Shown here piece by piece: positions 1-36,555 of a stretch of 64,000 nucleotides of DNA. A model generated the notes under the pieces. It did not search any database and was not told the origin of the DNA. It saw only the letters and a list, made by a program, of their open reading frames with translations. The translations under genes were made by a program, and so were the position numbers. The DNA is from Gnetum montanum (Eukaryota > Plantae > Gnetophyta). The DNA lies in contig MNCI01002568.1 in NCBI GenBank assembly GCA_015680685.1, positions 642,258-706,257 of the forward strand, given 5' to 3'. Numbering within the stretch: the stretch's first letter is position 1; each line of letters opens with the position of its first letter.

Positions 1-2849
1 GTATGGTGATGAAAAGGATTTCTTGATGCCAAGATTATTGCAAAAGGTTTTGGTTTCCGCGCTACTAAATTGTGGCCCGTTGTCTTTCACAATAGTCATT
101 GGAAGACCAAACGTTCTTACTATGTTATCCAAGATAAAGTGGAAAACCTGTTGAGAGGTAGTTTTTCTTAGGGGAATAGCCTCCACCCACTTTGTAATGT
201 ATTCGATTGTGGTAATTATGAAGCTATGTCCTACGGAAGACTTAGGTGTGAGGACCCTATGATGTCTGGTCCCCATCGTTGGAATGGCCATGTAATCTAC
301 GTAGGATGTAACTTAGTAGGTGATACGTGTATGAGATTTGATTGGCATTGACATACATCAAACATCCTAACTTTGGCTAGGAAATCTCGTTTGATGCAAG
401 GCTAGTAGTACCCTAGGTGTCTGATTTTTTCCGTCATAGCCCTAGGGGCTATGTGTTCTCCACATAGTCCCTCATGGACTTTGTTAAAAATTTTCTATGC
501 TTCTTCCCCACTAATGAAAGTTAATAATATCCCATCAAAGGAGTGTTTGCATAAGGCATTATCTCCTATGAGGACAAACTACCAGGCTCACTTTTGGATT
601 GCATCGTTTTGAACAGAAGTCAAGCCATGTGAGGGTTCGTTGTGTTGAAGGTAAACCTTAATATTTGCATACCATTCTTGGATGTTTGTTACACTTACAA
701 ATGCAATATGCGTTGCTTGAGTAATAGGATCTGTGCATTCTATTATCAAAGTGGGCAAAGTGGCAAACAAGTGACATGGCATATTCAATGCTAACATGGC
801 TAATGCATCTACTATGGTGTTTTCATTGCGAGGTACATGTTGAATGTCCAATGTTGCAAACTATTTTAACAAAATCTTAGCTAGATTGCAATAAGGGTGC
901 AAGTGTGAAGCCTTGCAAGCATAGACTTCAGTGATCTGGTTGACAACTAATTGCAAATCGCCTTAGATTGTCAAATGTTGAATCTTTAGCTCTTGGGCTA
1001 CTAAGGAGTCCTTGATACTTTGCTATGTTGTTCATACAAAGGAATGTAAAGAAATATGCAAAGGGTTGAATTTCCCTAGAGGGAAATGTAATAATTGTAG
1101 TGATGCTTCCACCTTGGATGGTTGCAACACCATCAAAATGTAAACTCACTTCAAAATCCGATGGCACAGAGTTTAGGCTATTGATGTGTTCATCTGGGAA
1201 TTCGGGTTCTATTATTGCTTGATCGTCAATAGGTGAAGTTGTAAGCTATGTGGCTATTTTTTGAACCTTTTTTGATGATTGAGCTACATAATGTAAATCA
1301 AATTCCACCATTATAGCTTTCCATCGGGCTATCCTACTACTCTCGTACAAGTTTGTTGTGATAGCCCAAAGTATATTGCTCTTGCATATGATGTTGACCT
1401 TGCTCTGAATTAGGTAATGTCTTCACTTTTTAAAGAAAATACTAGGGTGAGACAATATTTTTCTACCTCGTTGTATTTTTCCTCATAAGCTATTAATGCA
1501 TGGCTTAGGTAGTAGATTGGAATTTCAAACCCATTGTCTCTTTTTTGACAAAGCAACGTAGCAATAGATGTGTCTAAAGTGGCAAGGTAGAAATAGAAAG
1601 GCTTATCACTCTATGGGGGGTAAATAGTTGGTAGATGCAAAAGCTCTTTATTTAGGTTATCAAAGGCTTATTGAAATTGATCTATCCACTCAAAGTTAAT
1701 CCCCTTTTCAAGTAGGTGTTGCATGGGGTGTAGCTTATCTGTCAACCTTGAGATAAAACCTTTTGATAAACTATACTCTGCCTCGCAACCCGTGTAGCTA
1801 TTTAAGGTTTGTAGGTAGTGCTAAGTTGATGATGATCATCACTTTATCAAGGTCCACTCATATTCCTATTTCTAATACTATGAAACCTAGCATGCATCTA
1901 GTTTTAACTCTGAAAACACATTTCTTAGGGTTGAGGCATAGGTCATTCCTCTAACAATGTTGGAGGACTATATTGAAATCATTGGGATGATCTGTAGCTT
2001 CTTTAGACTTGATAGCTATATCATCCATGTAATCATTCAACCTCTCCAAAAGGTAGTCACTAAAAATATATGTCATCACTCGTTGATAAGTTAATCTGGC
2101 ATTCTTTAGTCCAAAAGGCATCATTTTATAACAAAACATTTCCCAAGGGGTCATGAAAGTGGTTGAAAAATGATGCTTTGGGTTTATATGGATCTGGTTA
2201 TAGCCTAAAAACCCATCCATGAAGGACAGTAAGGCATGACCAGCCATAGTGTCTATGAGTTGATCAATTTTTGGTAATGGGAAATCATCCTTAATTGTTC
2301 CTTTAATCAAATCTCGAGAGTCTATACAAATTTGTATACCTCCCATTTTCTTAGAAACTATAATGATGTTTGACACCCATTCTGAGTAGTCAACCGCATG
2401 GATGAAACTAGCTTGATAAAGCTTGGTGATTTCATCATGTATAGCTAGTGCAATCTCTGGTTTGATCTTGTGAGCCTTTTGCTTGACTTCCTTGACACGT
2501 GGGTCTAAGATGATGTTGTGTTGTATGAGTCATGGTTCTAGGCCCGACATGTTATTGTATGACCATGCAAACACTTTAATGTTGTCATGGAGAACTTTGG
2601 AAATGTTTTGGTGTACCTATGGATGTAACAAGGAGCTAACTTTCAAGGTCTTTGTTTCACCTCTGATGGTAGTTACGGGGATTTTAGTGAGAGGGTCCTC
2701 AGTTACAGTCCAAGCCTATAAGTCTAAGGCTTGGACCAGATGTTCAGGCCAACCTAGGGATGTTTCCAGGGATGCTACAATGTTGTGAGAGGATAACTCA
2801 AAGTCTACCAATTCTTGGTTCAAGCATCTTGTGAACTTGTTGTAGGCCC
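1..2849 (-). pseudogene. pol: Element A pol remnant: RT, RNase H, additional (archaeal-type) RNase H, integrase
   Basis: RT motifs ICIDSRDL, DDFPLPKIDQLID, SFMDGFLGYNQI, MPFGLKNA, YMDD (ORF 1951-2376). aRH motifs LHFDG, NNIAKYQG, HVPRNENTIVDALA. Integrase core motifs TKWVEAIPL and DNGPQF at 1-270. Many stops. Confidence 0.95.
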
Positions 2850-2876
2850 CTGTTAAGGTTAAAGGAAAACAAAGAT
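2850..2876 (-). promoter_or_regulatory. Candidate 3' splice acceptor directly upstream of the RT-coding region
   Basis: Minus strand reads CTTTGTTTTCCTTTAACCTTAACAG|G with AG at 2851-2850. The equivalent in C is TTTTAACCTTGACAA|G near 26547. Confidence 0.5.
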
Positions 2877-2999
2877 CACCATGCATAGTAATTTTTTTTG
2901 GGTGGACCTATCACAACAAGCAAATAAACCAAGTCAAGTGATACCTGTTTGAAGCAACAACATGTAATATAAATCAATGATGCAACATAAGATAATTTC

Positions 3000-3210
3000 T
3001 AGTTTAAGGTATTAGCTGACCACAATAGCATAATAGTTTGGTTTAAAACACAACATGAATGTTAAAATTGTCATTTTAAGGTCATGGAGGACCATCACTG
3101 GTCCAAAATGTGAGATGAATGTTATAAATTGTCAGCTTGAGGTCATGGTAGACTGTCATATGGACTTCACTATAGGTTAAGATTGCTAGTTTAAGTTCTT
3201 TGTAGACCAA
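3000..3210. repeat. Degenerate repeat array upstream of RT in A (core TAGTTTAAGGTC)
   Basis: About four or five degenerate copies such as ttttaaggtcatggaggacc and ctagtttaagttctttgtagacc; homologous to 26722-27142. Confidence 0.6.
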
Positions 3211-3250
3211 TTTTAAAATTTGCAAATGTGGCATGAAAAATGTTTTTTGG

Positions 3251-3391
3251 TGGGCCCACTTACTACGTTGGGAATGAGTGCTACGCTATAGCAGGATTGC
3301 ACTACAATAGTGCTACACTACCGCAGTGTCCCGCTTTAATCAGGATATGAAAATGACAAGTTTGTTTTACCGCATCAGCTATAAATAGGGG
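3251..3391 (+). promoter_or_regulatory. Putative promoter of the antisense gene in A
   Basis: TGGGCCCAC at 3251 and TATAAATA at 3380-3387, 145 bp before the ATG at 3525. Both are conserved in C (27161, 27292). Confidence 0.6.
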
Positions 3392-3524
3392 ATTACCCCT
3401 TGGTAAACCTATCATTTTCATTGTCAAAGCCCAGAGCCCATACGTAGAGCATAGCATGGTCAAATAGAAAGAGAGCAAACAAGCATAGCGTAGCAGCTAA
3501 TACTACTGATTTGCAAACAAGGTA

Positions 3525-6500
3525 ATGGTGCACAAAGGTGAACGTAAGCATCAGGGATTGGCCAAAGTTGATGAGGTGAAGAACACCCTAGGGTGCTTGT
3601 CCAAGGCATGCGTTGAAGTGCGACAAGAGACTCAGTCAGCTTAGTAAGTCATTATGCCACCCTTGCTTCCATTATGTGATGCATCAGGTTAGGTTTCCAT
3701 TGTCATTACTGCTGTCATTTTATCATCACTATTTTTATTGTCATTTCGCGCCGCTACACCATGGTTGTCACTATTTGGCCATGATGGCTATATGGTTACT
3801 ACGCTACAGCTGCATGTCGTACTGCTCTGACTACCATTGTTAAAAATGGAGACTGTGTTATTGCAGGGGTTTAATCGATTTTGGGTGGCATAGCACATGT
3901 TTGGCATAGTGTACCATTCTTAGGGGGGTTTGTTTATTTGCATAGTTTTTACAGCATTGTGATACATGCTTGGCATGACATAGAATAGGATATTTCATGC
4001 AATAGGGTAGGATCAGGGCAATGAGGGCACTGTGACTTCCTTTTTACTTATGTTGTTAACGTTGTAACATTTTTTTGTTGCTATTATGCTGCGTTGTTAT
4101 GTTGTCAAGCCCTTGGGGTGTTATGTTGGTCATCTATTATGTTGCTATGCTATCAAACTTGTAATGCTACTATGTTGTTAAGTTCATTACACTATCAAAT
4201 TTGCTATGTTGCAATGCCTATTATAGTAATATGTTCATTATATTGTTACATGTCTGCTTGCGCCTGTTCATTTATTGCATGTTGTGCATTCATCTCGTTA
4301 TGCTGTGCGTAGTGCAATCATTACCCTTATGCAGAAGTGTAACTGTTACGCTACATGTCTGTTATGTTGTGCTATATATTATGCAACTATATTGTGGGGT
4401 GCACCCACTATTGTTACATTGCATGGGCCTTAACTGCTACATTATGCTACATGTAACACTTTTTTACAGTGCATGTAATGTTTAACTCAGTCTTATGGCA
4501 AGGACTCACTGATTCATGCTAAAGGAGAATTTGTAAGTAAAGGATTACACTGTGTTTCATGTAAATAGAGGGTCACACTACGCTATATGCAAACAAAAGG
4601 TTATGGTATGCTTCATCAGTGATCATCACTTGAACACAGTGCTAACGTTTGATACTTTGCCATGCAAGGTCATGTTAAATCTTGTTTTGATTGTCCTTAA
4701 ACTTATAAGATTCCTATGCTGCCTCGGTGAACCTATGGCCAATGTCCCTTCTCCCCATGCACATGTGTGGTAGTAGGCGGTCTAGTTTCGGGAGGGAGCA
4801 CATGACTTCCTACAGTTCCTCCTCTACCATTTAAGTATGATCGTGTGGTCACACCTATTTTCCTAGATAGCTGTTGTACTTGCAGAGACGTTGTTACTTG
4901 GGGGAAACTGAGGCATTTTGAAGTTTTTGGCCAATGGGTCAATCAGGGGTAAAGGGGCAGGAAGCTCCAACTAGCATCCAAGAGGGTTGAGAAGCTTAAG
5001 TTGGATTTGGGACATGCCTAAGTACAAATGCTATCATTTATACAACACGCTATTTGTTGCCCATCACATGGGCACTTGCTTTCAGAACCCACTTGGAACC
5101 ATTTACTATGGCAGTGGGTAAGTCTTGTGAAGGTATCTTAACATATTGCATGATTCACGTTATGCTAGATAGAGATTCTTATAGTATTCTTGTATATTAC
5201 TAGGTTTTACATTGACGAAGGCAATCTTCACGGTAATATGGATGCATTGGCAGTGGCCTAGACAGCTCTGCAAGAGTTTTCTTCCACCGAGAACATGTGT
5301 GCCAGTGTGATAAAACAACTTGCATTTGACTTCAAAACCTATCCAACTAGGTATTCCAAATTTTATGGAAAGTGTAAGAAATTTGGTTGGTTGGATAACG
5401 AATAGACATTGCACTAATCGATTACCGTCAAAGATGTTCTAATGGAACTCCCACCATTTCCTATGCTATTCAAACCTAGTATGTTAGACCATGGATTTAT
5501 TCTTGTGTTTTCAAGTGATGATGTTCTTTCATTTTGTTTTGCTAACTCCCATTCTTTTTTTATTTGTTAACTATCGCAGTAGCCAGGGAATCCTAAGAGG
5601 TCATTGTGGTCACCTCTGGGCATGATGATACCAACCTCTTCTTCAAGTATGGGGAGGTGGAGGAGATGTAGCATTGGCTTTGCCATGGGGCCCCAACCAC
5701 CATTGTTCATAACATTCAAGAGATAGGGCTCATGGAATTATTTCTAGCTATAAACCCAAATGTCCCAGCTATGGAAATGCTTTCCCTAGTCAATTCCTTC
5801 ACCGAGAAGGCTGACCACTTCTACACATGTGTTCATAATGTGCGAATGATGTTTGAAATTAATGACCAACTATTTTTAGACCTTTTTAGTGTCCCTTTTG
5901 ATGGTCTCCCTGTATGAGAAAAATATAAGAAATATTTGAACCATCAAGGGGACATTGAGGAATGGCTGGGGATGGCTAAGGACCGAAAGGGGATTTACAT
6001 CCACATGGTCAAGCTGGCAGTGGCTGAAACAATTTATCTTGTCTTCTGTGCCCATGCTTTCTCAAAGCTACTCTTCCAAGGGGAAATCCTTTGAGTGGAG
6101 TAGGCTTGGATAATGAAGGAGGTCATGGAAGAAGGAACCCATTATAACTAGGCCTAGTACCTTTTTAAAGGCTTATGTGTTGAAATGGTCAAAGCTTCAT
6201 GAGAAGCTTGAGTCCCATTTCAATGTGCATTACACCTTCTTTTTAGCTTACCTTTGATGCTTTGTGAAATTTCTGGTAGTCCATGATAATGGTGCATGGG
6301 TACTGCAAGATCATAACTAGATATCAAAGCCATAGATCTACCAGGATTTTTGCACCACCCGATCCCAAGAACCCCAAAAAGCCATAGATCTACCAGGATC
6401 TACTCCACTCAATAATGATGAGGGATTGGGTGGCATGCCCCTTTTGTGGTTGGGACAGCATGGGAGAAGCACCCCCCATCAGCACAAGTAATGTGTTAAG

Positions 6501-8341
6501 GTGGGAACACCTTATTGCAAAGATTGTAAAGACCAGGCTACAACATAAGAAGTCTCATCCTGTTGAAGAGACTCCTCGCACAAATGAAAAGAGGGGGAAG
6601 AAGTTGTGAATCAAAGTTTGCAAAGTGCAGCCCCAAGTTGGTGAGTATAATAAAATTATTTTTGTTAGCGTAGCACTTGTTATGCTATGCTACGCTATAC
6701 AGTGTCATGCAACGTAGTGCTTGTTTCAAGTTGAAATATCCTGCTAACTACGATCATGTTTTATTAGAAGAATAAAAAGAAGAGGAAGAGGAAGAGGAAG
6801 TAATTTTTTCCCCTGAAGTAGGGGTGCCTACGGAAGAGGAGGAGGAAGAGGCCCTAGCTATGGAATAAGAGGCCCCTACCAATGACCCCTTTGTAGAATG
6901 TGCTTCAGTGCTTGAAGGGAAGATGAGTGTTGAGGATGCTACCACACTTCTGGGCCAGCTGAAAAGAGAGGGGCTACAATTAGATGCTAGTGAGTTTGAC
7001 CAATTTCTTGATAGTTTCTTGATGAGCAATCCCCTCGCTATCCCCCCTAAGGATTTTCTGGATAGGAGCTTTCCACTATCATGTCATTTTTCATCAACTC
7101 TATTGTTATCCCCTCTACCATGGCCAGCATGTTTTATTGTGCAGCGGACACCACTATTGATGCCCTTGACCCTTCTTCCTCAATCCGTCTCTGACCTTGG
7201 ATTGAGATCCTCGACAAGTTTACCTTCATGGAGGGGGTGGTTGATGATATGATTGATCGCTTGAAGTATATTGATCCTAAGACTAGTATGCTACAATTTC
7301 TATGCTAGGCATTTGTAATTATTAGCTTTTCTTTTGTCACTGTGACTAACATTCTTCCATACATGGCATCCTCCCGCCTCAAGTGGGACCCTCGGCAGAC
7401 TATCAAGGTCAACGTCGTGCCTGAAATTCCGTCAAAGGTGACTAAGGTACCTCACCACATTTATGATGAAATGAGTAAATTTGCATTGTACTCAGCATGC
7501 TCCTTATGGGAGTGTAGGCATGTGAACAAAGACCTTTGGAAGAGGGTACAGAAATTCAAGAAAGAGAAGACTAACCTAACTGCAGAGGTGGAGGATCTCT
7601 ACTCTAGTAATGAGTTTCTGTTGGCTCACAACACCCATGATGGTAGTTGGTGTATGGCTATGATTGACTATGCTAAATACTAGACAATTGTATGGAACAA
7701 TAATGAGGCTAGTCATGAAATTATTGAACAACGCATGTAGATGGACCTCCTAACATAGAAGAACCAAGAATGGAAAGACTACAGTGTAAAGATTTACAAA
7801 TGGGGATAGGCACATAAGAACCATAAACATATGTATAAGATGGAAAGTGTCACCTATTATAAGCAGTACCGGGATGCTGTTGTTGAAGCGTGTATCCTTA
7901 GGGTATTTCTTGACGTCATTGGTGTTTTTGGTGCTTATGAGAGGTTCATGCAACTAATGACGATAAGTGAGTCTCTTGAAAGGGAGGTGACCCTACCTAC
8001 CAAGGAGACCACCACCATTACATTTTTCCTAGGACCACCTAGATGGATAGTCATGGAAAAGGGAAAGGTTGCAGCAAGCACTGATCTAGGAGAGGTGAAT
8101 TGGGGCAACCTCACTAAGGAGGAGATCTTGTGATGTCTCATGGCCAGCATGGATCGGATGCCCCTCGAAATGGACATGGGGCCATCTCGGGTTAGTCACC
8201 TTTTGTTATGTTATGGTTTATTTTTGTAAAATCCTTTATTGTAGTTTGAATCATTGTTTTATTTTCTACTTTATGCATAATCTGAATGAAGATGCAGGAC
8301 CTAGTAGGACAAGAGACGGTGATGGAAATGAAGACCCATAA
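3525..8341 (+). pseudogene. Antisense multi-exon accessory gene of element A (unknown protein with acidic linker and C-terminal coiled-coil-like region)
   Basis: Exon 1 is 3525-3643, then GTAAGT. Further donors at 5118, 6641, 7286, 8191; acceptors at 5203 and 6767. ORF pieces 5732-5917, 6415-6609, 6908-7252, 7342-7683 and 7831-8133 have homologous sequence in C, and several also in D and G. Confidence 0.82.
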
Positions 8342-8504
8342 CGTGATGACCAAAAATTTTATTTCTTGCTTTGAATTTGATTGATTTGTAAACATTATTG
8401 ATTAAGATTGAGTGGAGAATGAATGCGAAATAATCTATTTCATTTCAATTAACGTGTTTCATTTAATTTTTTATCTTTTTGGGCTCTTTGAAAGCCTCTC
8501 ATTT

Positions 8505-8720
8505 TAGTTTAAGGTCATTCATGGCCATTGCTTAATGATGACTTTCTTTCTTTTTTCTTGTTATTGCTTCGGGGTAGTGAATTTGCCAATTCTAGGCCAT
8601 GGTGGGCCATGATGAGTAGTTTAAGGCCATTTCTGGCCATGTCTAGGTTTAGGCCATTTTGGGCTGTATGTGAGGTGATAATAAAGAAAATTACCAATTT
8701 TAGGCCTTAGTGGGCCATTT
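8505..8720. repeat. Short tandem array between gag-PR stop and antisense gene end in A
   Basis: Repeated TAGTTTAAGG(T/C)CATT..GGCCAT units; homologous to 32420-32625. Confidence 0.65.
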
Positions 8721-8903
8721 AGTGCTGCAAACAATGGACATAATGTAAACAATGTAAACAACGAAGAGGATGCTAGCATAAACAATGAATACAAAGTAAA
8801 CAATGTAATTGTGACATTGATGTAAGTAGTAATCTTGATGCAAGTAGTGGAGTAATTACGCAAATGCAAACGACGATCATTCTCACAATTTCTTCTTAAG
8901 CCA

Positions 8904-11900
8904 TCATGGGCTTGGTGATGCGTATGGCCGGGAGGTTTTGTTATGATACTCCTCTATGTCATCATTTACTACCTGAAAGGGTAGCTTAGTCCATGTTGTT
9001 TCTTTGTTTGGGCTAGTTTTGACTTGTTTAGGCATTTCAGTTTCAACAGGGGTTTGGTTTTTAGAGATTTTGATCTCTGAACCTTGCTCCATTCCTACAT
9101 TGTTTAAGGCTCAGGTAGCCACTTCATCGCCATGAATTACCACTTCCCCTCCTACATAGGGTAAGTGGATTTCCTGGTGTATTGGTGAGGAAACAACCCT
9201 TAACTAGGCCAACCATGACCTCCCCAAGATCAAGTTGAACCTAGGCATCTCCTCTACCACTATGAACACCACGCTTGTGGGGAGTTGGTCCCCTTCCACA
9301 AAGTTGATATGTACAGTTTCTTTTACTAGCATACGTGCCCCATTAAATGATTTTAAGTAGGAAGTCATCATGGACTTGATTTAATCGACCAAGCCCAATT
9401 TGTCCACTATGGGAAAGGGGATGACATTAGTAGTAGCCTCATCATCAACATGTACCCTTTGGATCTTGTACTGACCAACCTGAATTGTGATGAACATAGG
9501 TGCCATCATCACCTGACCCTTTTCAAGGTCATCCTTAATGGACTCATCATGGAATGTTAACTGGGCTAGCCATGGTTCCTTGGCCATAGAGGCAAGCATG
9601 ATAGCATGGATCACTTTCTCCTTTGCTGACATGTTTTCATCAACTAGTATGGATGTTAACATGCGAACCATGACTTCTTAGTGTGTAGTGGATGTCATTA
9701 CCAAGTTATACAAGCTCAAAGTTGTGTTTTTCTATTTTAGAGCCTATTTAACTTAGGTGAGGGTGCTGAAAAGATCCTACCTACCATCTTGTCTGTTACC
9801 CTTTTCCTCCTCCATTCAGCCTAGGAGATGAATCTCCCAAGGAGGGGCAACTTCAGGTTGAGGACTATGGTTTCTTGGGTGGGACAGTAGCAATTGCTTC
9901 TATGGCATTATCAATTGCTAACGATGAGGGGACCATGCGCATCAAGGATAAGGGGGTAGGCTTGGGGGGACCTAAGGTAGTACGTTCCCTAGCCATCTTG
10001 TCTGCCAAACTCTCTTCCCATTTTTTTGAACAAGGAGGCTGTGGTGCTGCTTTCATTGCTTGGCTTTGCATGGTAGAAGTGCTTATTTTTTTTGGCACCT
10101 TAATAGTGAATGGTGTCTGTGGTGCTAGCGTAGGTGGTATAGTTCTGAGCACAAAGGGTGTAGGGGTGGATGTCTAAGGAGGGACCTTGAGGAGAAATAG
10201 TTATCATTATGTGATTTTTATCATTATAGGGGTTGCTGCATTTCGAAGAGGGACATGCACCATGAATGGTTGTTGTGGTGGTTTTGGGTTTCCATCAATG
10301 CCAACGACATTAATTATGTACCCTGCATTTTTGGTTTTTAGGAGGTCCTTGTAAATGTGCATTAACTAGTTTTTAGGGTGAATAGGACTACTTTTGTCCA
10401 GGACCAACTTGCCCTGATCGATCATGTGTTGGATATCGTCTTTCAACACTAGACAGTAGTCCATATCATGACCACACAGTTGATGATAGTCACAGAAACA
10501 TTTGAGCCTAAATTTCTTAGGAACTAATGACTCATTGGGCATGGCTAAGGAGGGGTTCCTAAGAAGTTTGCAATACCATTTATGTCATTTAATTACTTGC
10601 TCTGACATCCTTTTGTACTATATATACCCAACTCCCAATAGTTTCTTCAAAAGTTCTAAAGGCTTAACAGGTAAAGGGGTGTATTTGGAGTGATCCTTGC
10701 ACTCAAAGTTGGATTTAGGCTAGGTTGACACTTCAGGTATTGATGTTGAGGATTGACCAGCATTACTTGAGCCAGATGTGGTATTAGCAAGCTCCGTGGC
10801 TGCCTTTTTGTTGTTGCTCTTGTTAGGTTTGGCCTCGTTACCCATAGCAACCACCGTGACTGTTGCAGCCTTGCCCTTCTCTTTGTCTTTCTTATGGTGT
10901 GCATTTTTGTATGTGACATAAGCTAAGTATTTACTAGCCTTGGTTGCATCTTGGATGCTCTTGGTCTAAGTGAAAGCTTGACTGAGGGAGCACGGGGCTA
11001 AGTAGTAAAGCTTTGACTTGATAAAATTGTTTACTACCCTCTTAAAAATGGCCAATAGGTGGGCCTCAGTGATAGGCTCATGTATTTCATTCAAAGTGGC
11101 ATTCCACCACAATATGAATCTTTGCACAAAATCAAGTGGGTCTTGCTTGATGCTCATCAGTTGGTCTAGCGTGACCTCTAGTTTTAAGTTATACTTGAAG
11201 CAAGTCATGAACAAACTCAGCAGCTCCAAAGTTGAGATGGAGGCATGTGGGAGTGCATGTTACTAGTCTAAAGTATTTCCTATCAAGGACATGGAAAATA
11301 CGCGGATGATAGTGTGTGGCCATTACTACAATAATATAGATTCAGATCTAAACATTACCAAATGTGCGTTGGGATCACCTTGCCTGTTGTATTTTGTAAA
11401 TTAGGGGAGTGGCATCCCATGGGTTAACATAAGCATGGGAACGGCCAAGCTAATGGGATCATCATGGTAAAAGTCCATGACCTATACCATGTCAAAATTG
11501 ATAGCTTTGAGGTGTTTGATTTCCTCAGTAAGGATCTAGATAAGTTGAAAAACTTGATCCAGACCTGGTGACATTGTAGATGGTTGCGGGGCTGCTTGAG
11601 TAGCCATCATATGCATCGATGGGAGTTGCAGTGTAGGCGTAGCAGCCTGGCCCATGGGGGGTGCTATTGGTTTGACTCCTGCGGATGGTGTTGCTTGGGC
11701 CATCCACCACCCAATGGGTGGTGCCGTTGATGCAGTGACCATTGGTGGGACTATGGGGTTGATAGGTTGCCCAGTTGGTGGGATGGCCCATAGCCTTGCA
11801 CTAGGTTGTGCTACATGTGGAAGTGGGTGTACTTGGGGTTGCATGTAGTATGATACCTAAGAGGGTTGGGCCATAGGTAAGGAAGGGGTTGGCACCCACC

Positions 11901-12675
11901 ATGTAGTTGAGACTGGGTTAGCCACTGGTGGTGGGATAGGTGTAGAAGAAGGACCAAAGGTGAAGCTTGCATGTGACTAAGATGCAGGAAAAGTATGGAT
12001 GTATGGTAGAATAGCCATGATGGATGTTGGGTACACTACTAAGGTAGACTGAGAACGAAGTATGACTAGGAATGAAGCTGAAGGGCCCCCTTGCTAGTGC
12101 ATAGAAGGTATGGGATGACTAGACACGGCTAACAAAGGTGCAAATTGTAACAGGGTTGTGGTAACCACAAAGGGAGAAGAAGCAAAGAGCGGGTTAGACT
12201 GAAAGATAGCAATAGGCAAGATGACTATAGCATAGGTTTAGCCACCACCGTCAGAGTGGGAGTCCAATTCTTCCTATCCATCTTGGAATGCTTCGTTGTA
12301 GTGGAACACTGTGTCTCATTCCTTGGACCTACTAACTCACATCAACTGGTCCAAGACCCATTGATATTATTTAGTTAATGGGATGAAGATGTTAAGGGTA
12401 GGGATGAACTCCCTTCCATTTCGGTGGAGGAACTTGAAGTTACAATTGTCTTCGAGTTCCTAATGGTCCAAGGGTAGATTTACTTGGAATTTTTGGCAGA
12501 GGAAGTCATATTGCTCTACGTCTTATGTCAAGCGCTTTGGTGATAGGTGTTGCAATCTAAGGGATTGGCATGGTGTTAGCACCAGGCTAAGTGGCCGCTT
12601 AGGACCTATTACATTTTGGATTGAGTAGGGAACCTCTATATTTGAGGTGGTGGCAATAGTGGTTGTAGGAATCAT
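8904..12675 (-). pseudogene. gag: Element A gag-protease remnant
   Basis: Capsid-like FTKYNRQGDPNAHL and FKYNLK segments, knuckle CDYHQLCGHDMDYC near 10450-10500, protease RVHVDDEATTNVIP (ORF 9381-9671). The start position is approximate. Confidence 0.88.
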
Positions 12676-13000
12676 CTTTCGTCGTAAGTTGAAAACTGTA
12701 AAAGAGAGAAAACATGTAACTGGATGTGCTAGGGAGAAGCATCAGGAGTGCTACGCTAGGCGGTTTTCTATGTCACACAAGGTGCATGTAGCATGGGGTA
12801 GTAAATAGGTTAAACACGGTAAGATGAACAATCAATTGGAGGCTTTAGTCCTACCAGGTCCCAAAGGAATTGTTGTTGCAATTGGTCTACACCACACAGT
12901 GTGTAGACAACCACAATGGTGTCACGTCTATGCTAGTAGGTGATGGGGTATAGACTACATGTAGCATTACCTATGATACGTAGAAAGGGCACAAAAGGGC

Positions 13001-13016
13001 CATTCTTCTAGCACCA
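13001..13016 (-). promoter_or_regulatory. PBS of A, degenerate tRNA-Asn type
   Basis: Plus strand CATTCTTCTAGCACCA, similar to the plant tRNA-Asn 3' end CCCTCCTTCTAGCGCCA as I recall it; adjacent to the LTR. Confidence 0.7.
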
Positions 13017-13021
13017 AAAAC

Positions 13022-15220
13022 TATAGCGATCGAAAAAATTAGTGGCTATAACACCAAGAGGTCACTAGGCATATAGCCTAACCCCATATTTGTGCGAGGG
13101 TCGTGTTAAATGTAAACAGATGTGGGGTACCTTGAATGATCTGGTCGATTAGACAGGGACTTAAGCAGTGTACAATAACCTTTCGTAAATGTTGGTTTTA
13201 AGGCTGTTATATGCACATTGAGTGATAAGCGATGAACATAAATTGATTGAAAATAATGCAAAACATAAAAATAACAAAAAAATGAAATAAGTTTAGGTAA
13301 GGAAGTGCACCACCCTAAGATTGGGAATCTGATCTTTGCTAAAATGAAAGAGGTGTATAACATATGGCGGTGGGAACAAGAACAACTTGTAATGAAGTAG
13401 TATGGTCATAGTTCCTCAAACTGCTATTAATAGCTTGCTAATAGGGACCCTCTACTTGCCAATCTCCTTGCCAAAGTTAATCACTAGAGAGCTGAAATGC
13501 CAAGATCTCAACAAAAAAAAAGGCAACCACCAAAGAAATAATTGCCAAAAGCCAACAATGCCAAAGTTGATTGAATGCTCCAAGCCAACAATGCCAAAAG
13601 CCAACCCCATTGGAATGCTCCCAAAAGTCAACCTCTTGAACATTGTTCATTGAGGTATTTATAAAGTTAGATGTGGAAGAGAAACATGGTTTGAGTGCCA
13701 TGTGTCCTGGGTCCCATAAAGTGCAGACATGACTATGTCGTGCTACTGTGCAATGATGAAAACTACTATGCTTGTGACCATACCATTCATGCTACATGTG
13801 CTAAAGTCCAGTGAGCTACTATACTTTTGTAAAGAAAACTGCCAATCAGTAAATGCAAAGTGGAGCTTGTGCTCTAAGACTGTGTCTTCCCTACTCTTGC
13901 GAGTAGGGTCAAGCATAGGGACAACTTTGGGGATGGTTAGGGGGTGCAAAACAAGGCAAACTTGTTGATTTCGCCTATTGGAGAGGTGTTGGGATGAGAA
14001 TAACCATTGCCAACCAGTTCTATAGCTAATCGAAGATGTCTTGAGACTGCTACGCGAGTGTTACACTGTTTATTCTCTCCAACGTATGTAGCATAAATAC
14101 CCGCATCCTACGCTATGCTACGCTATGTAGCATCGTGTAGTGTAGCCACTGGTCTTAAATGAAATCTTTCTTATAAGCCAAAAATACCTGTCTGAGGCAT
14201 TGTTAGGCAAGTGACTGTAGCCCTGTATTTCATGCTGAAAGGTCTTAGGACCTGCTGAGTTCATCTTTGGGACACTTTGGTGTTTTGCATCCCTGCTATG
14301 TTGTGCTACGTTGCGTAGTGTAGTGCAGCATAGCAGCCAATATGACATGCATCCTCACCTAGTTTTACAATGCTTTGTCAAGATACCGTGCTTGAAGCTT
14401 GAGGGTGGAGTGAGACAACTAGTTTTGGAGGCCAAAATGTGGCCAAGTGCAATCTTCTTGCTAAAACCTCTTAGCAGAGGGCCTTCGTGTGTTCTATCCT
14501 TTCTATGCTATGCTATGCTACATAGCATAGCACAATGTAACACCCAGCTTGGCTTCAATTCTAACTTAATCTTGCAAACATTTTGTTGTAGGATGTCAAT
14601 CATGTCCTAGCGTGTCAATGAAGAAAACCTATCGGTTGAAAACTAGGCAAATGTTCCTACTCCATCAAAGCCATTTGACTGGGAGCATTGTAAGAGTGTA
14701 TCCCTACTATGTTGTGCTAGGATGTGTAGCATAGCATAGCGTAGTGCTTAAGTGAAGAGGACCTCTGATGATATTTGCTAGATTTTTGCTATGTCACTTT
14801 GCTCGTGCATCAAGGATGAAGTGGGGTAGATTTTCTGAAGGGTTGAGTTATCATCAATGTGCATCTGCAATACTTGTTTAGTCTTCTCGAGGCCTACTAC
14901 ACTCTACAGTGTAGCATAGCATAGCAGGTTTCTTCAGTTAGAAAACTTGCCAAACTATTTAGCTCATCCTGAACACTTTTGGTAGCTCCTAACATGGTCT
15001 CTGGGTAGACCATCAACCGGGCCAAGTACCAAGCTGGGCATGCTAGAGAGTTTAATAGGTTTATCAGCTAGGGTGATAGAAAACTTGTCAGACTATATAG
15101 TCTACTTTCAGTGCCTACATTATCTGGATGGTGCATCGTGATGCTACACTTGTGAAAATCCTTGCCCAAATTTCAAAACTCTATTGAAGCATTAGGGTTC
15201 TAAAATTTTATGGTGTTTCA
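13022..15220 (-). repeat. 5' LTR of element A (about 2.2 kb)
   Basis: Collinear similarity to the C LTRs at both ends, minus-strand TATA near 13657, GCTAC/GTAGC motif clusters. Confidence 0.85.
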
Positions 15221-16620
15221 CCTAGGTTTTGCTGTAATCAATGAGAATTTTTATAACTTCTTCTATGCTAAAATACATGTTAGGAATCTCATACCACATT
15301 ATGAATCTCATGCTAAGCATTAGTATGAAATTATACACTAGGAATGAAAAGAATACATCCCATCATCCTATGACAATATCTCCTTAACTGACTTAAATGC
15401 ACACATGTTGATACAACTCATAGATGTCAAAGAGTGAAGTAAGAAGATTAGTTTGGGTGGACATCAATAAGAGCAAGATGAATTTGAGACTAAACAAGAG
15501 TTAGATATCTTCATTAGGAGCCTATTCCAATAATTGGTTTCCTAAACAACTATCCCTAGTTTTACATCCCCTACATCATCTATGGAATAGATATCTCAAC
15601 CCTCTTCTCCTCATATTCATCCCACTATGTTTGGATCAACACCTATTATTTCCATGCATCAGGCTTAGCCTATGCCTCAATTAGCCTCCTTGTTCTAATC
15701 CATGCCCTTTACAACAAAACCTCACCCTATGCAACCAACACCAGTGGTGTTTGCCACATTCTATCCCTTCTCCATCCTAGTGGGGCCCTCAGTGGGACCC
15801 CAAACTACATAAGCATCTCATACTCCCTTTTCTCAATTTATCCCTCAGATTCCAATGCAAACTTCCTTCTCATTGTTTAGCCCTCTTATGACCATAATCA
15901 TCCAACCTCTTCCATCATTGTCCTTATCCATTGCACCACCTCAAACCTCCCAACTCCCCCTACAACCATTCGTACAAAGCCCAAAACCCATTAGAATGCT
16001 CCAAGGCTTGGATTAGGCCTTCCAAATGGTCCAAGACCTTACTGAAGAGCTATACAAGCTCAAAGCTTTTACCTTGTAGATGGTCAAAATAATGGACTTC
16101 AACCAAGATGATCCCATTAGTTCCACCATCCTCCAAATTACTCTTCCTTTGAGCATTCCCATTCCCTAATTCACTAAATACAATGACAAGGTTAATCCCA
16201 ACACACATCTCACTACCTTCCATTCTAAGTGCTTGTTATTACAAGCTTGACCTCGTACTATCATGTGCATCTTCCCTATGTCTATCACTGGGAAAGCCTT
16301 GGATTGGGACTATGTGTTACTTAGGGGGTCCATTGCTTCATTAGAGGACTCTATTTCACAATTCATCAATTATTTTAAGTATAACTTGAGACCTAACAAA
16401 ATCCTTGATTAATTGATAAAAACAAAATAGGTGCCTCTTGAACCTATCCACAAGTTCATTCAATGATGGAATGCTCTCCTTAATAAGATTTCTAAGTTTA
16501 TAGTTGAAACTCATCTTCTAGCCATTTTCAAGGGGGTGTTCAATGACTTTATTAAGTTCAAAATTTATTACCTAGACCCATAATCTCTTAGCAAGGCTTT
16601 CTCTCAAACAAAGAACATAT
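15221..16620 (+). pseudogene. gag: Element D gag, N-terminal part
   Basis: Translates to FYNFFYAKI, QDDPISST, FTKYNDKVNPNTHL and FKYNLRP, matching G (YNFIYVKI, QDDPIDPS, LTKYNGEGDLNTHL). Confidence 0.85.
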
Positions 16621-16773
16621 ATGTTATGTGAAACGTATTGTAATCTTTAAATAATTTAATTGAAGATAGCTAGTTTTCTTGTTTTTCTAGCAAATAAATT
16701 TGTATTTGCATGATATCTAGAGTTAGTATGTTGAAGGTGCTTTAATTGTGGAGTGAACCTACTCCAGTGTTAT

Positions 16774-16785
16774 TGGCATCAAAGC
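16774..16785 (+). promoter_or_regulatory. PBS of B (tRNA-iMet type)
   Basis: TGGCATCAAAGC versus consensus TGGTATCAGAGC, directly after the LTR remnant. Confidence 0.8.
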
Positions 16786-16834
16786 CTAGTTTTATTGTTT
16801 CTTGGATTTTGGTTGAGGATTTTGTCAATTTCAA

Positions 16835-19800
16835 ATGGTGCCCAAGAAGAAATAGGTGCAAGCTCTAAATCATGACATCGAGAGCATGAAGTCAACCTTC
16901 CAGATGATGGTTGCTCAATTAGATGAAATTAGTGTGAATGTGGACAAACAAGCCAATCCTATCCATATCCAGACATGTGGAGGTGAAGAGCCTATACATT
17001 CAGCTAAAGAAGTTTCATAGCTAGATGGAGAAGGAGTAGATGAAGAGGAAGATCAATCTAGCTATGGGAGTGTAGAAAATCATCAGCCAAGGATTCCAAT
17101 GGAAGGGAATCCTATTTCTCATATAATAATTCCAAGGGCTCTGGTGGTGCTCAATACTTCTTCAAGCAAGCTTGACGATGAAGATGAGGCAAGGCTTGCT
17201 AGAGCATTCAAAAATGCTTCAAGACTTCCATATGTAGAGTTGAAGACTTTCAATGGTGTAGATGGCACCAATGCTTTTGCAAGTTGGTTGAAGGAACTTG
17301 AGAAGCATTTCTATTGGAAGAGGTACCAAATAACTTACAAGTACCTATTTCTGAATCCATATTAGAAGATATGACTTCTACATGGTGGGAAAAGGAGTTC
17401 CAAGGTTATGAAAGATGAAATTGTCAACCTATTAAATATTGGAATTTGATGAAATATAGGTTGAAAAGGAAATTTGAATAGCCTCATCAAAGACAAGAAA
17501 TCATTATGAAGTTGAAATTCCTAAGGTAAGATGACAAGGATGGCAAAGAGTATGAGCAAGCTTCAATCTTTTAGGAGGTCTCAAAATGATGTACTAGAAA
17601 GAGTTTTCCTTTTATGAGCCACAAACATTTGATGAGGCTTATGATTTGGCACACAAAGCTAAGAAGAAATTAGGTGGATTTGGAAATAGGAGCAAACAAA
17701 CTTCTAAGGGGAAGGAGAAGGGATCTAGATCTAATAAGGGATCCAAATCCAAATTTCAATACAAAGAGGATAGCTAAGATAAGAAGAATAAAGTAGGTGA
17801 TGAGAAGGATAAAATCAAGAACGACCTAAGCAAGGAAGGCAATGGAAAAGGTAGCAGCTCATCAAAATTTCAAAGCTTCACTTATGGAGAATGGGAACAT
17901 AAGCAATGGGAATGTCCACTTCACAAGGTAGCCAAGGGTAAATATGTGCAAACCATAGAGGTGGAGGAGACATCAAGCCAAGCCCTTCAAAGAGGTAATC
18001 CTAATACTCCAAAATTTGGGAATTTTTTTGAATTAAATTCTTGTGGATTCATGGGGAATGTAAATAGAGAAGATCATCCTAATAGGGAATTGTTGTTTTA
18101 GATTGGGGCTAGTTGTTTGCTTAGTATGGAATGGATTCATATTTTGATTGATGGGGAAGCCTAAGAAAATGCTATTTCTTCTAAGATATTTACTAAATTT
18201 GGTTTGGTAACTCATCCTCATCCAAGACCTTATAAGGTGCATTGGTTATCTAAAGGTTTTTCCCAAGAGCTGAGGGAACAATGTACTTTGAAATTTAAAA
18301 TTGAAAGTTTTCATGATGTTGTGAGGTATGATGTGCTTCTAATAGATTCTGTTGATGTAATTCTTTATAGACCTTGGAATTTTGAAAATATTGCTCAATT
18401 TGATGGAGCAAGAAATGTGTGGAGTGTTGTTAGACTTGATGGAGTACATGATTTAATTCTTATGATAGCTAAACAAATGAGATAATAGAGCTTACTTAAT
18501 GCTTCCTTAATCCTTCTAGGAGAGAGGAAATATATTAAGGAATATAATGAAACTGGTTTTGATTTTTTTGTTATGATAACAGTTGCTACTAACTATGATG
18601 ATGCATAGGTTGAACTTCCTAAAGGTTTTCTAAGCTTGAAGGAGAAATTTTCCAAAGTGTTTAAGGGGGAATTAGATGGACTACCATTGATGAAGAATGT
18701 ACAACACCAAATTGACTTCATTCTTGGTGCTACCATTCCAAATGAGAGAGCTTACCAGATGGTACCAAATCAGAGGATTGAATTGCAAAGGCAAGTAGAG
18801 GTTATACTTTCAAATGGCTTTGTGAGGAAATTCATTTCACCTTGTGCAATTCCAGCTGTGCTAGTTCCAAAGAAGGATAGTGATGAATGGAAGATGTGCA
18901 TTGATTCTAGGGTAGTGAACAAGATAACAATGAGTTACAAGTTTTCTATTCCAAGAATGGATGGTATCCTTGATGTCCTTTTCAATGTTAAAATTTTTAA
19001 CAAAATTGATTTAAAGAGTGGGTACCATCAAATAAGAATCAGGCCTGGTGATGGGTGGAAGATAGCTTTCAAAACATTGAATGGATCGTTCGAGTGATTG
19101 GTGATGCCATTTGGGCTCATGAATGCACATACTACATTCATGAGGCTGATGCATGATGTATTGAAGGACTTGGTTGGTAAGTGTTGTACTATCTTTTTGA
19201 TGATATTTTAGTGTTTATCTCTAATGAGGAAGAGCTCTTGAATCACTGAAGGATGGTGTACCTTAAGTTAGAGGGAGGCATAGTTGATGATCAACATGAA
19301 GAAAAGTTATTTCTTCAAAAGGGAAATCACATATTTGGGGCATGTGGTTTCTAAAAATTAGATTTCGATTAAAGCTACCAAGGTGAAGGCTATAAGGGAT
19401 TGGCCAACACCTAAGAATGTTAGGAAGGTAAGATTATTCCTTGGTTTAGTAGGTTTTTATAGATAATTCATAAAAACCTTTAGTGGTATTTTGTGCCTTA
19501 TGTTTGCTTTGTTGAAGAAAAATAAGGAATTTAGGTGGGATAACAAAAATCAAGGGATCTTTGACTTGTTGAAATTAATGATTACTAGTGAATTAATGCT
19601 TGTACTTCTAGATTTTCATAAGCTTTTTCATGTAGAGGTGTATCCAAGTGGACTTACCATTGGTGGGGTACTCTCACGAGAAGGTAGGTTTGTTACTTTC
19701 ATTTCTAAAAAATTGAATGAGTCAAGACAAAATTATAGTATATATGAGAAGGATTTGTACACTGTTCCTTAAGAAACTAAGAATTGGAGGCATTACTTGT

Positions 19801-20039
19801 TGCCCAAAGAATTCACTTTGATGATGAACCACAAATCACTTCAATTTCTAAACTCATAAAAGACATTGAGTGCAAAGCACATGAAGTGGGTTGCATACTT
19901 ACAAGATTTTAATTTTTTGTTGAAGCATAAAAGTGGGAAAGCCAATGTGGTAGCTGATGCATTATTTAGGGTGCATGTGGTAAATTTCAGTGTACCTCAT
20001 GTGGAAGGTATGAATGATTTTTCTTCTTTATATGAGCAT
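16835..20039 (+). pseudogene. Element B gag-PR-RT-RNase H remnant
   Basis: HPHPRPYKVHWL (CRM-type), QHQIDFILGA, SPCAIPAVLVPKKD, KIDLKSGYHQIRI, HKSGKANVVADAL. Confidence 0.93.
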
Positions 20040-21959
20040 TGTAGCAACTGAAAACGTCAGTGGCTGGAACACTAAGAGGTTGCCAGGTGAACAGTTTAAT
20101 CGTAAATCTGTGCAAGGACCGTGCTGGAGAGAAATGGAAATGAGGCACCCTAAATGGTCTGGTTGATCAAACAGGGACTTAATCAGTGTATCTTAACCTT
20201 TTGTAAACATTTTTTTTGGAAGCAAGACACATGAAGTAAATCAACTATCAACAAAAGTAAAATGGTGAAAATAATGCAAAAACAACGATGATAGTAAGCG
20301 AATAGCAAAATAGACTTGGTTGAGAGAGTGCACCACCCAAAAGGTCATGGATTTGATCCTTTTACCTTGCTAAAAAGTGTAGAATAGGTTATGCAGCATA
20401 GAAGAGGCACAACTTACATTGCATAGTATAGTCATAGGTCTTCTACTTACTACTTTGTTCGCTAAGATGCCAAAATGCTTGACTTGCAAAGGCATGTTTG
20501 GAGCCAACTAGAGAACTCAAAGGTAACTAGAATGCTCAAAATGTCAACTATGCTCTCTAAAAGACAAATTAAAAGCCAACTGCACCAAAAAGCTAAATTT
20601 TTTACCAACAAAGCCAATTAGCCAACCTGCCAACCAATTTTTTACCAACAACCCAAATTTTTTTGCCAACCTCCCGAGCATTGTTTTCTAGGGTATTTAT
20701 AGGGCCAGGAGCAAGAGAGAAATGTGGTTTGGATGCCAGGTGTCTTGGGCCCCCACAAGGTGCTAACATGTCCATACCGTGTAGGTGTGCGATGCTGGAT
20801 ACGAACTTTGTTACACTATAGCCATACTACTGAAACCGCATGTGCCAAAATATAGTGTGCCATCAATGAAAGAAAAATGGAGCCTATGCTCTAGGACTAC
20901 ATCTTCCCTGCTCTTATGAGCAAGGTCAAGCATAGGAACAATTTTTTTGGAGTTAACCAGGGGTATGCAAAATGAAGTAAAATTTTTGATTTTTCCAAGG
21001 AGATGTTAGAGTGAGAAATATTGTTTCCAACAAGTTCTAGAGCTACCTAAAGATTTCTTGATGCTTCCATGCTAGTGTTGCACTACTCAGGCTATTGAGG
21101 ACATTGGTGTAGTGTAAGTAGCTTCTTGCTATGCTATGCTATACTACGCAGCGTAGCATAGCGTAGCCACTGGTCTTGACAGAAATTTGCATAGGAACCG
21201 AAAGCATTGGTGTGGGGCTTGGTCAGGAAAAATACTGCAACTTTTGTCCTTCATGCTGAGAATCTTTTGAACTTGCTAAATTCATGTTTTGAACATATCT
21301 AATTTTTTTACATTTTTGCTACGTTGTGCTATGCTATGTAGTGTAGCATAGTGCAGCAGCCATTGTATCATGCTTCCTTGTTCAATTTGACATCTTTCTA
21401 GAAAGAAACTTTGCTCAAGACCTTAGGGTTAAGTGGGATAAATAGTTTGGAGGCTGAAGCGTTGCCAAAGTGCAATCTTGTTGTTGGAGTCATTTGGCAA
21501 AGGGGGGCCTTCATGTGCTTCCTTTGCTATGTTGCATAGCGTAGCATAGCATAGCACCTTGTGTTGAATCCTGACTTGTCTTGTAATCATTTTGTCAATT
21601 TACATTTGGATGCTTAAGTGATTATATTTCAAGGCTTTCTACACTACACAATGTAGCATAGTGTAGCAAACGTTTTCACTAGAAAACTTTCCAAACTATT
21701 TTTCTCATCCTGAACACTTTTGACAACTCCTAGCATGGTCTCTGGGTAGACTGTTAGCTAGGTCAATTGTCTAGTCGAGCAGGCTGCAGAGTCCAGCAGG
21801 CCTGTCAACTCTGGAGACAGAGAACTTACTAGACTGGATAGTCTATCCTTGGTGCCCACTATTCTGTCGGCTCATCATGATGTTGCACTTGTGGAAATCC
21901 TTACCCAAATTCCAAGACTCTGCTAAAGCATGAGGGTCCTAAAAATTTATGGTATTTCA
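20040..21959 (-). repeat. 3' LTR of element C (1920 bp)
   Basis: Direct repeat of 36579-38466; 13 mismatches in a hand-aligned 120 bp sample (20881-21000), about 89% identity. Confidence 0.95.
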
Positions 21960-21973
21960 TTGGCCCCTCTTTG
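21960..21973 (-). promoter_or_regulatory. Polypurine tract of C
   Basis: Minus strand CAAAGAGGGGCCAA directly before the TG of the 3' LTR. Confidence 0.8.
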
Positions 21974-23344
21974 TTCACATCTGGAGGATCTGCCCAAGAG
22001 ACGTCAACAAAGAATACGAAACATCATGAAGGATAATATGCCAACATTGCTTTCCGATGGTCACTCAGATGTTGCTTTACTATTCTTGGGAGTATAAAGA
22101 TAGTTGTGCAGGAAAAGGGGAAAAAGGGTGGACTTGAGGAAATAGGTTCAGGAAAAGGAAAGATGAAATGAGCACAATCCCTCATCGGAGTGCTTGTAAG
22201 GGAATCAGCACACGTGGGCATCTTTCTATTGCTAGCTTCTAACCTCTTGTTGGAATGCTTAAATATGATCATTTGTGAAACAGCTAGTGTGCCATTTTTT
22301 TGGGCACATGCTCATTTTTTTAGCTCTTTTTCTCATTTATGCTTTTGCGCTTTTCTTTTGCTATTTATCCATGTTCACTTGCAAACAAGCTTGTTTTTGT
22401 AGGATAGGTGTTTCCTCCCCAGGATGAGTTGTGTTACATCCATGTGGGGTTTTGACCTACCTATAGATACTTCCCATGCGGCGAGCTATGTTATGCACAT
22501 CATGAACTTTGAGGTTGAGCATATGGGAGGGCTTTGCATACATTGAGAAAGCTTGTAAAAGAGATGTGAAAATGGAAACTACAGGTGTAGAAAAAAAGAC
22601 GATGAAGGTTAAGGGGAAGGGTAGGATGTGCACTCCCAAGTAGCTAAGCTAGTTAGAATGATCACCTTGGAATGATGTAGTGTCCTATTCTCTTGCAAAA
22701 TGCATCCTTGATTGATGCCATCTTGGCCCATATCCTACAAGCGCAACAGAAAGCAGACCATAGAAATGTAACCATGAAATGAAGTTAGGCAAAGGTCTTA
22801 ATACATCACCGAAGTGGTAGAAATTGTTGTTGAGACATGCAACGTCCAAAGAAAAAAGGCCAGTAGTAGTTCTGGTAGCGGCAGACTGAAGGGGCCAGCA
22901 CTAAGGGAGCTTGGAGTTGTGGCAATGCGAGTGCGTAGGAGTCCCCGCCCAAGGCGAACATCATGCAGTTTAGTTGTAAGGTGAGAATCATAACAACTAA
23001 ATGTCTTTTGAGCTCAAATGATGATGAGGGTTGGAGGGTAGCAACTTTGTGGCTAGGCCACAATAGTGTTGTGACTCCAGCAGTAGGCACTGACATTGGA
23101 AACTACTGCTAGGGTGATGGGATGTGGTAGCAGTAGCTTCGAAAGTTTAGCAAGATGTCAGATGACATCTTTGGACGATTAGCAAGATGCCAGGGGTAGT
23201 GGCATTGCATATGTTCCAAAGGATGTTCTCTTATCATCGTGAACTGCATTATGGAACTACAACACCCCACCCCTTGTTAGCTCTATGCATGCTCACTTGT
23301 TTGTAGGGTCATGGATGCAAGCTAGGAACGTTGTGCCATGAACC

Positions 23345-23670: not shown

Positions 23671-23694
23671 ATGGATGCTTACCTTGCTTTTGCA

Positions 23695-27142: not shown

Positions 27143-27160
27143 TGGGATGAAATTTTTGGT

Positions 27161-36527: not shown

Positions 36528-36555
36528 NTAAGATGCAAAAGGGGCACCAAAAAGG

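Follow-up and report, generated by a model that had tools for sequence, protein, structure and literature searches.

Antisense accessory genes have been described in several Ty3/gypsy long terminal repeat (LTR) retrotransposons, and in the accounts given by PMC7264820, PMC11963269, and PMC4408406 those of Retand, Grande, RIRE2, TatIII, and the fungal Boty are all located between pol and the 3′ LTR. Of these, gene23 of Grande is described as having its own promoter and a nuclear product (PMC7264820). In Ogre, an intron between GAG-PROT and the reverse transcriptase (RT) is spliced in a subset of the RNAs (PMC6317226; PMC4408406), while the REXdb survey, as presented in PMC6317226, recognizes just two classes of extra open reading frames (ORFs), those 5′ and those 3′ of the polyprotein. 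Here, we analyzed a 64,000-nt stretch of the Gnetum montanum genome (assembly GCA_015680685.1, contig MNCI01002568.1, positions 642,258 to 706,257 of the forward strand; termed the window, with position 1 as its first letter) and found that four decayed plant LTR retrotransposons, designated A, C, D, and G, each carry the same antisense gene. We consider it probable that these Tat-type Ty3/gypsy elements carry, between gag-protease and RT, a selected gene on the opposite strand that likely has its own promoter, is spliced (seven or eight introns), and likely encodes a regulatory accessory protein of about 1,090 residues. Antisense accessory genes 3′ of pol are already known; a many-intron gene between protease and RT, as predicted here from sequence, is apparently new. 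No account of such a gene was found in the main texts of the open-access literature searched; the supplements of PMC6317226 list single elements and may bear on novelty.

Self-comparison of the window revealed a nest of decayed plant LTR retrotransposons, among which A, C, D, and G were found to be related. In A and C, which lie on the minus strand, the order determined with Pfam was 5′ LTR, gag-protease (gag-PR), antisense gene (plus strand), RT, RNase H (RH), a second, archaeal-type RNase H (aRH), and integrase (INT). In D and G, which lie on the plus strand, gag-protease was followed directly by the antisense gene on the minus strand, the 5′ exons and pol having been removed by later insertions or by the window end. 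The antisense gene was thus positioned directly behind gag-protease, in the same direction, in all four copies and ahead of RT in both testable copies (A and C). This interruption of the element between protease and RT, its most unusual feature, is absent from the preliminary description of this DNA. The TG..CA LTRs, the target duplication, and the order gag-PR-RT-RH-INT are those of Ty3/gypsy elements, and the presence of aRH (PF13456, E-value 1.9e-10 in A and 1.1e-11 in C) places the elements in the Tat clade, which is defined through this domain (PMC6317226). Likewise, the location of aRH between RH and INT and the fusion of PR to gag correspond to the domain order of Ogre and Retand (PMC6317226). 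The nearest RH match was only 42% identical, and a piece of RT was 44% identical to the same protein. The protease was called on position, conserved motifs, and weak Pfam rows (E-values of 0.062 in A and 0.14, both below the cut-off), and gag was matched by Pfam in G at an E-value of 0.003.

When compared with Ogre (Tat IV), the elements were found to share the protease fused to gag, the separate RT-RH-aRH-INT frame, the 5-bp target duplication, tandem repeats, and large size. However, the Ogre spacer averages 274 bp and holds no gene, whereas the present spacer measures about 6 kb and accommodates the antisense gene with its many exons; in addition, the PMD-coiled-coil ORF of Ogre is 5′ and in sense orientation (PMC4408406), while the gene examined here is antisense and gave no PMD match. 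A family-wide conserved antisense accessory gene is shared with Retand, Grande, and RIRE2 (Tat VI) and with gymnosperm TatIII, but the antisense genes of these elements lie on the far side of pol rather than between PR and RT. They are also described as ORFs, mostly of TRP28 or PMD type (the word 'intron' is absent from the main text of PMC11963269 on antisense ORFs), in contrast to the seven to eight introns and neither domain found here, and in TatIII the aRH follows the integrase instead of preceding it. Outside of plants, HBZ of HTLV-1 and other retroviral antisense genes are likewise antisense accessory genes, with a nuclear regulatory role (PMC11963269). HBZ differs in being a short gene of unrelated sequence that is driven from the 3′ LTR and overlaps no gag-pol gap. 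HBZ is spliced. The brtn gene of Botrytis Boty/BcGypsy1 is a further antisense extra gene of a Ty3/gypsy element (PMC7264820; PMC4227169), cited in PMC4227169, PMC8365987, and the preprint of the latter. It differs in belonging to a fungal chromovirus and in its position 3′ of pol. The brtn transcript is reportedly spliced. Overall, the gene can be likened to an accessory gene of Retand type at the site of the Ogre intron, and it departs from both systems in position and domain content.

The preliminary description of this DNA had proposed eight or more exons and roughly 1000 amino acids, in accord with the present model of eight supported exons and one inferred 61-nt exon, which fits all sequence tests and is predicted to span about 1,090 codons in A and about 1,150 in C (with an expanded acidic repeat). 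Exon 1 had been given as 119 nt from ATG to GTAAGT, and this was found to be true of A (3525-3643) and C (27435-27553), the two copies in which exon 1 is visible. Coordinates are listed below, along with the ratio of the proportions of nonsynonymous and synonymous differences (pN/pS) between A and C for selected exons.

3251 to 3387, plus strand: putative promoter of the A antisense gene, with TGGGCCC at 3251 and TATAAATA at 3380
3525 to 3643, plus strand: A exon 1, beginning with ATG, 119 nt, ending in phase 2; pN/pS 0.23 over 38 codons
3867 to 3927, plus strand: A inferred micro-exon, 61 nt, which would restore the frame from exon 1 to exon 2; in C at 27754-27814
4669 to 5117, plus strand: A exon 2, with an AAG acceptor and CTAAC 27 nt upstream, ending after NPLGT..
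5204 to 5478, plus strand: A exon 3
5580 to 6640, plus strand: A exon 4, which contains two frame breaks; its conserved block is the largest and precedes a basic stretch
6768 to 7061, plus strand: A exon 5, acidic
7145 to 7285, plus strand: A exon 6; the donor upstream of it is defective in A
7370 to 8190, plus strand: A exon 7, the KWDP exon, with a heptad-repeat stretch; acceptor defective in A
8279 to 8341, plus strand: last exon of A, containing the stop; its acceptor is defective in this copy; pN/pS 1.08
27435 to 32232, plus strand: C antisense gene, with the same exon set as A
43200 to 46817, minus strand: D antisense gene, starting within exon 2 (its 3′ part) and continuing to the end; the last exon is uncertain
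51753 to 51881, minus strand: D antisense gene, 5′ part of exon 2 (E-value 8e-6), split off by an inserted copia-like element
59914 to 62450, minus strand: G antisense gene, from part of exon 4 to the stop, its 5′ part replaced by other LTR-like sequence

The 61-nt micro-exon, with a good acceptor, a weak GTTTG donor, and a pN/pS of 0.57 on 18 codons, is weakly supported. The acidic exon of C was observed to be enlarged by about eight in-frame 21-nt repeats (30526-30776) that are absent from A.

Conserved splice signals were found at the exon borders. All 16 donors, comprising the two exon-1 donors and the 14 named in the preliminary description, read GT; the latter are located after QNPLGT (A 5118, C 28861, and D 46617), before the acidic exon (A 6641, C 30346, D 45014, and G 61675), before the KWDP exon (A 7286, C 31176, D 44457, and G 61008), and before the last exon (A 8191, C 32080, and G 60130). 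Fifteen of these donors matched at least three of four further consensus letters, with the donor at A 7286 matching two; for comparison, this criterion is satisfied by 0.45% of positions in the window and 0.51% in the gene region. Among 20 scored copies of introns 2-7, 18 begin with GT and 17 end with YAG. The introns are short as previously described, although their range of 83-214 nt is wider than the 86-150 nt given for most of them, and their T-rich character was borne out (40-41% T compared with 25-27% in exons). The sequence CTRAY was present 12-60 nt from the intron end in 15 of 24 intron copies, and the branch-like CTAAC noted earlier near 6744 was found to lie in intron 4 of A, 24 nt upstream of its acceptor. 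These features (GT donor consensus, YAG acceptor, U-rich body, and branch-like CTRAY) are those of U2 spliceosomal introns.

Since A and C are 63% alike even within introns, the two copies were treated as one line of evidence, and the real test was provided by D and G, the exon proteins of which are 28-42% identical to A or to each other. In D and G, 8 of 10 testable donors had the correct phase and lay no more than a few codons from the homologous position (binomial P-value about 1e-8, window of ±6 codons; two donors not named earlier were located by eye). Intron phase was identical on both sides in every copy scored. Donor position was exact at introns 3, 5, and 6, and shifted by 1-5 codons at introns 2, 4, and 7; thus, the earlier statement that the introns occupy conserved positions holds for phase throughout and for exact placement at three introns. 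The earlier statement that protein similarity stops at the exon borders was similarly correct for D and G but not for A and C. The acceptor of intron 6 was exact in C, D, and G, and two further conserved introns were identified beyond those first listed (A 5479-5579 and A 7062-7144). Certain sites are damaged: A has three defective splice sites (the intron 5 donor and the intron 6 and 7 acceptors), C has lost its intron 3 donor in a 37-nt deletion, and D has AT in place of GT at the donor of intron 5, with no intron 7 located. From these signals, we infer that the gene was spliced.

Codon comparisons were consistent with constraint on the encoded protein. Between A and C (1,007 codons), pN/pS was 0.39 (95% confidence interval, 0.35-0.44), the ratio of nonsynonymous to synonymous substitution rates (dN/dS) was 0.25, and mismatch rates at the three codon positions were 0.26, 0.19, and 0.40. 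By contrast, non-coding controls (LTR pairs and intron 1) gave a pN/pS of 0.69-0.76 and a dN/dS of 0.59-0.74, such that the constraint on exons expected in the preliminary description was detected. The other five copy pairs had a pN/pS of 0.55-0.68, with synonymous sites to D and G near saturation (pS 0.71-0.85). By the same method, dN/dS was 0.14 for pol, 0.17 for gag-PR, and 0.26 for the antisense gene. The five other reading frames were rejected, having pN/pS values of 0.79, 1.04, 0.70, 0.50, and 1.10 compared with 0.38, as well as more stops. Insertions and deletions between A and C numbered 8 in 3,254 aligned columns of exons (2.5/kb) and 26 in 1,303 of introns (20/kb). The last exon was found to be without constraint between A and C over its 20 codons. 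As judged from these substitution patterns, the exons evolved under purifying selection. All four copies are now pseudogenes, with stops in 29 of 1,076 codons scored in A, 30 of 1,127 in C, 8 of 681 in G, and 15 of 380 in D; 51 of the 82 stops are TAG, and CpG is depleted. Copy A additionally has two frame breaks along with its defective splice sites.

The region 5′ of exon 1 was found to contain a candidate TATA box about 145 nt upstream of the ATG, reading TATTTATA on the opposite strand, as well as the TGGGCCC sequence, which we take to be a site II/TCP element, just as we take the former to be a TATA box. The counterparts of TGGGCCC and TATAAATA in C are at 27161 and 27292. Because both motifs are common to A and C, the antisense gene likely has its own promoter. 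The gene is arranged head to head with pol (about 500 bp apart) and tail to tail with gag-PR, the frame of which ends about 6 kb before RT in A and C. Just ahead of RT, an acceptor-like TAG|GT with a U-rich tract is common to A (2908) and C (26600). In all four copies, the gag-PR stop is closely preceded by a motif resembling W-x-x-L-P-F-x-V-x-N..E-Y, at a distance of about 60-90 residues from the protease (8890-9000, 32800-32900, 42320-42400, and 59225-59330); in G this motif contains a perfect sense donor (59255) that is absent in A and C. A short repeat motif (core TTTAAGGYC and variants) was also observed to flank the antisense cassette on both sides and, in C, to form arrays ahead of and behind pol (3075, 8508, 8620, 23348-23562, 26729-27083, 32450, 42759, and 59358-59578). 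These repeats may be a trace of cassette or pol movement, or a packaging or spacing signal. Scans for tRNA genes and bacterial promoters were empty or irrelevant.

In the predicted protein, exons 2-4 contribute conserved blocks, and a basic patch and an acidic tract are also present; exon 7 of A, C, and G adds a heptad pattern (coiled coil), located identically in all three. Comparison of the exon blocks with one another revealed no internal repeat (hhalign probability ≤1.2). Homologues were not found for exon 4 among 245 longer candidate proteins, nor for exon 7 among 1,704 candidates. An exon 4 profile scanned against 1.84 billion representatives gave two matches, both of which were rejected as repeat proteins scoring by summed repeats. 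None of 12 whole-frame translations matched Pfam, and 19 exon pieces gave sub-threshold rows only, including a DUF7745 row at an E-value of 2.9 that is not significant; a likeness of exon 4 to PMD/Transposase_32-type motifs was not borne out by Pfam. PDB sequences gave one weak row per query, the ESM Atlas gave no usable match for two natural ORFs (Matrixin rows at 0.85 being below the useful range), AlphaFold2 models from five-row alignments had mean pLDDT values of 42.8 and 41.8 and were unusable, Foldseek gave no viral match at an E-value of 0.001, and no related locus was present in the metagenome and viral contigs searched. Since spliced plant transposon genes are poorly represented in the search libraries and decayed single exons served as queries, these results are taken to indicate distance from known families rather than an absence of relatives. 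By analogy with Grande gene23 and the PMD-coiled-coil and TRP28 ORFs, a nuclear regulatory role of the protein may be suggested.

No RNA run was found that contained the stretch itself. Expression was examined by mapping raw RNA reads of the same species label at 80% likeness, using six runs in seven mappings, with about 2 or 26 in 100 of each run covered. Per run, 899, 346, 139, and 47 reads were mapped to 1-13100 and 119, 13, 40, and 46 to 4500-8450. None was 99% alike to A and most were less than 90% alike, so the reads stem from other copies; relatives with these exons therefore exist and are transcribed at a low level. The strands of read group X1 were mixed and uncalibrated (gag/pol mostly with the first mate on minus, 5556-5687 mostly plus, and 7404-7799 mostly minus). 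Four X4 reads lacked GT at the donor position of intron 6, and the five letters visible beyond it fitted neither side clearly.

Several observations weigh against a selected, spliced accessory gene of the kind proposed. No splice joint was seen in the mapped reads, all of which derive from diverged copies, and the sequence of all nine X1 reads at 5575 and of three X6 reads before 7145 extends into introns. Exon 1, which has phase 2 at its end, does not fit the conserved phase 0 acceptor at 4668, such that the spliced frame expected in the preliminary description is maintained by consistent phases in all copies but joins exon 1 only through the inferred 61-nt exon. TRP28 (PF04195), PMD (PF10536), and Athila ORF-1 (PF03078) were matched neither by the 19 exon pieces, which are decayed, at E-values up to 10 nor by the 12 whole-frame translations, although a distant link may exist given this decay, and in the above searches no homologue, family, or fold supported the proposed protein role. 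A strong sense-strand donor common to A, C, and G was not found, leaving the splicing proposed below for pol without its donor. Finally, the scope was one 64,000-nt window of one genome, with pol visible in A and C only. The missing joints and the two read groups that keep intron sequence would fit introns that are not spliced, or splice-like signals that are chance occurrences or relics in AT-rich spacers between separate small ORFs. We regard this explanation as highly improbable, because 15 of 16 donors are near consensus against a background of 0.5%, 17 of 20 introns end in YAG, phases in D and G agree at both ends of each intron, and the exons have no starts and stops of their own.

A gene that is real and spliced could also be a captured host gene or the remnant of a DNA transposon (Mutator/CACTA type) that inserted into an ancestral element and has since been a passenger or acted on its own behalf, with no role in retrotransposition. 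Genes with many introns that encode acidic and coiled-coil segments typically belong to hosts or DNA transposons, and constraint on the gene is looser than on gag and pol. Tat extra ORFs have a PMD related to those of Mutator (PMC4408406). Counter to this explanation, which we find improbable, selection is detected along element lineages that have diverged to synonymous saturation, the gene occupies the same site in all four copies, no terminal inverted repeat common to A and C was found among the 25 longest pairs listed for each, and no transposase or host family was matched. Capture is nonetheless the likely origin of the gene and is compatible with a selected accessory function. Instead of a nuclear regulator, the cassette might encode a membrane protein of envelope-like or movement type, as Tat extra ORFs have been discussed as env-like (PMC4408406), exon 7 has a coiled coil, and exon 2 of A and C opens with a hydrophobic stretch of 19 residues (mean hydropathy 2.42 and 2.04, respectively). 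However, this is the sole stretch above 2.0, the peak of 1.95 in A exon 7 is not common to C or G, and methylation-driven decay may itself raise the number of hydrophobic codons. With a charged N-terminus, no signal peptide detected by eye, and an acidic tract and basic patch that better fit a nuclear protein, a membrane protein is very improbable.

The elements that carry the gene are listed below, with other sequences of the window described thereafter.

1 to 2908, minus strand: A pol without protease (RT, RH, aRH, and integrase), running off the window, with the acceptor-like TAG|GT at 2908 ahead
8885 to 12600, minus strand: decayed gag-protease frame of A, with approximate limits; its end faces that of the antisense gene (tail to tail)
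13020 to 15220, minus strand: A 5′ LTR, ends approximate, with a primer-binding-site-like sequence behind
20040 to 38466, minus strand: element C, complete, with gag-PR, antisense gene, and pol; LTRs at 38466-36581 and 21959-20040
40880 to 42420, plus strand: D gag end and protease; the 5′ part of D gag is at 15300-16620
55900 to 59330, plus strand: G gag-protease, start approximate

Element C is a single whole insertion with TG..CA LTRs (87% identical), flanked by the 5-bp target duplication AGCAT. Insertions were repeatedly nested at a single location, with A in the leader of the related element D (15220-15300), C in element B, and B in D. Element B is a second, unrelated Ty3/gypsy element (16623-20039 and 38472-40877) that is split by C and itself located in the gag of D; its LTR ends are 87% alike over 144 nt. 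The copia-like element in exon 2 of D (46796-51749; LTRs about 80% alike) has a gag-like frame (47900-48600) followed by an AT-rich interior with no obvious pol. LTR-like insertions are also present at 51929-55000 and 62700-64000; one has a primer-binding-site-like sequence near 52749, followed at about 52886-53750 by a decayed frame that includes a His/Arg/Ser-rich stretch of low complexity, and another, in opposite direction, is responsible for the loss of the 5′ exons from G. As 64 kb contains four diverged lineages, the genome probably has many copies of this family.

The survival proposed for introns that are antisense to the reverse-transcribed RNA follows from established retroelement biology. 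Very probably, the full-length sense RNA would be copied with the introns of the antisense gene standing in it as reverse complements, to which the spliceosome is blind, and they would be inherited by each new copy because they remain unspliced. Since gag-PR stops about 6 kb before RT, pol would need its own message. The preferred source of this message is a minority of the sense RNAs, in which splicing to the acceptor-like site before RT would remove the entire cassette, as a short intron is removed at this place in Ogre, a proposal we hold to be evenly balanced; a divergent internal promoter is an alternative that seems rather unlikely. The protein, with its globular blocks, basic patch, acidic tract, and coiled coil, might aid expression of the element in the nucleus in the manner of the PMD/coiled-coil and TRP28 accessory proteins, although this analogy is tentative. 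It is conceivable, if somewhat short of an even chance, that these elements represent an undescribed plant Tat branch with a three-part genome of gag-protease, a nested opposite-strand host-like gene of eight to nine exons, and pol from its own message, and that the nested gene is a new protein family needed by the elements (e.g., for escape from host silencing), the introns of which were inherited through reverse transcription until synonymous saturation. As interpreted here, an antisense gene would provide retroelements with a route to keep and spread intact intron-bearing genes, its position in the gag-pol gap would force an unusual way of making Pol, and the gene would serve as a testable candidate for the function of Tat accessory proteins.

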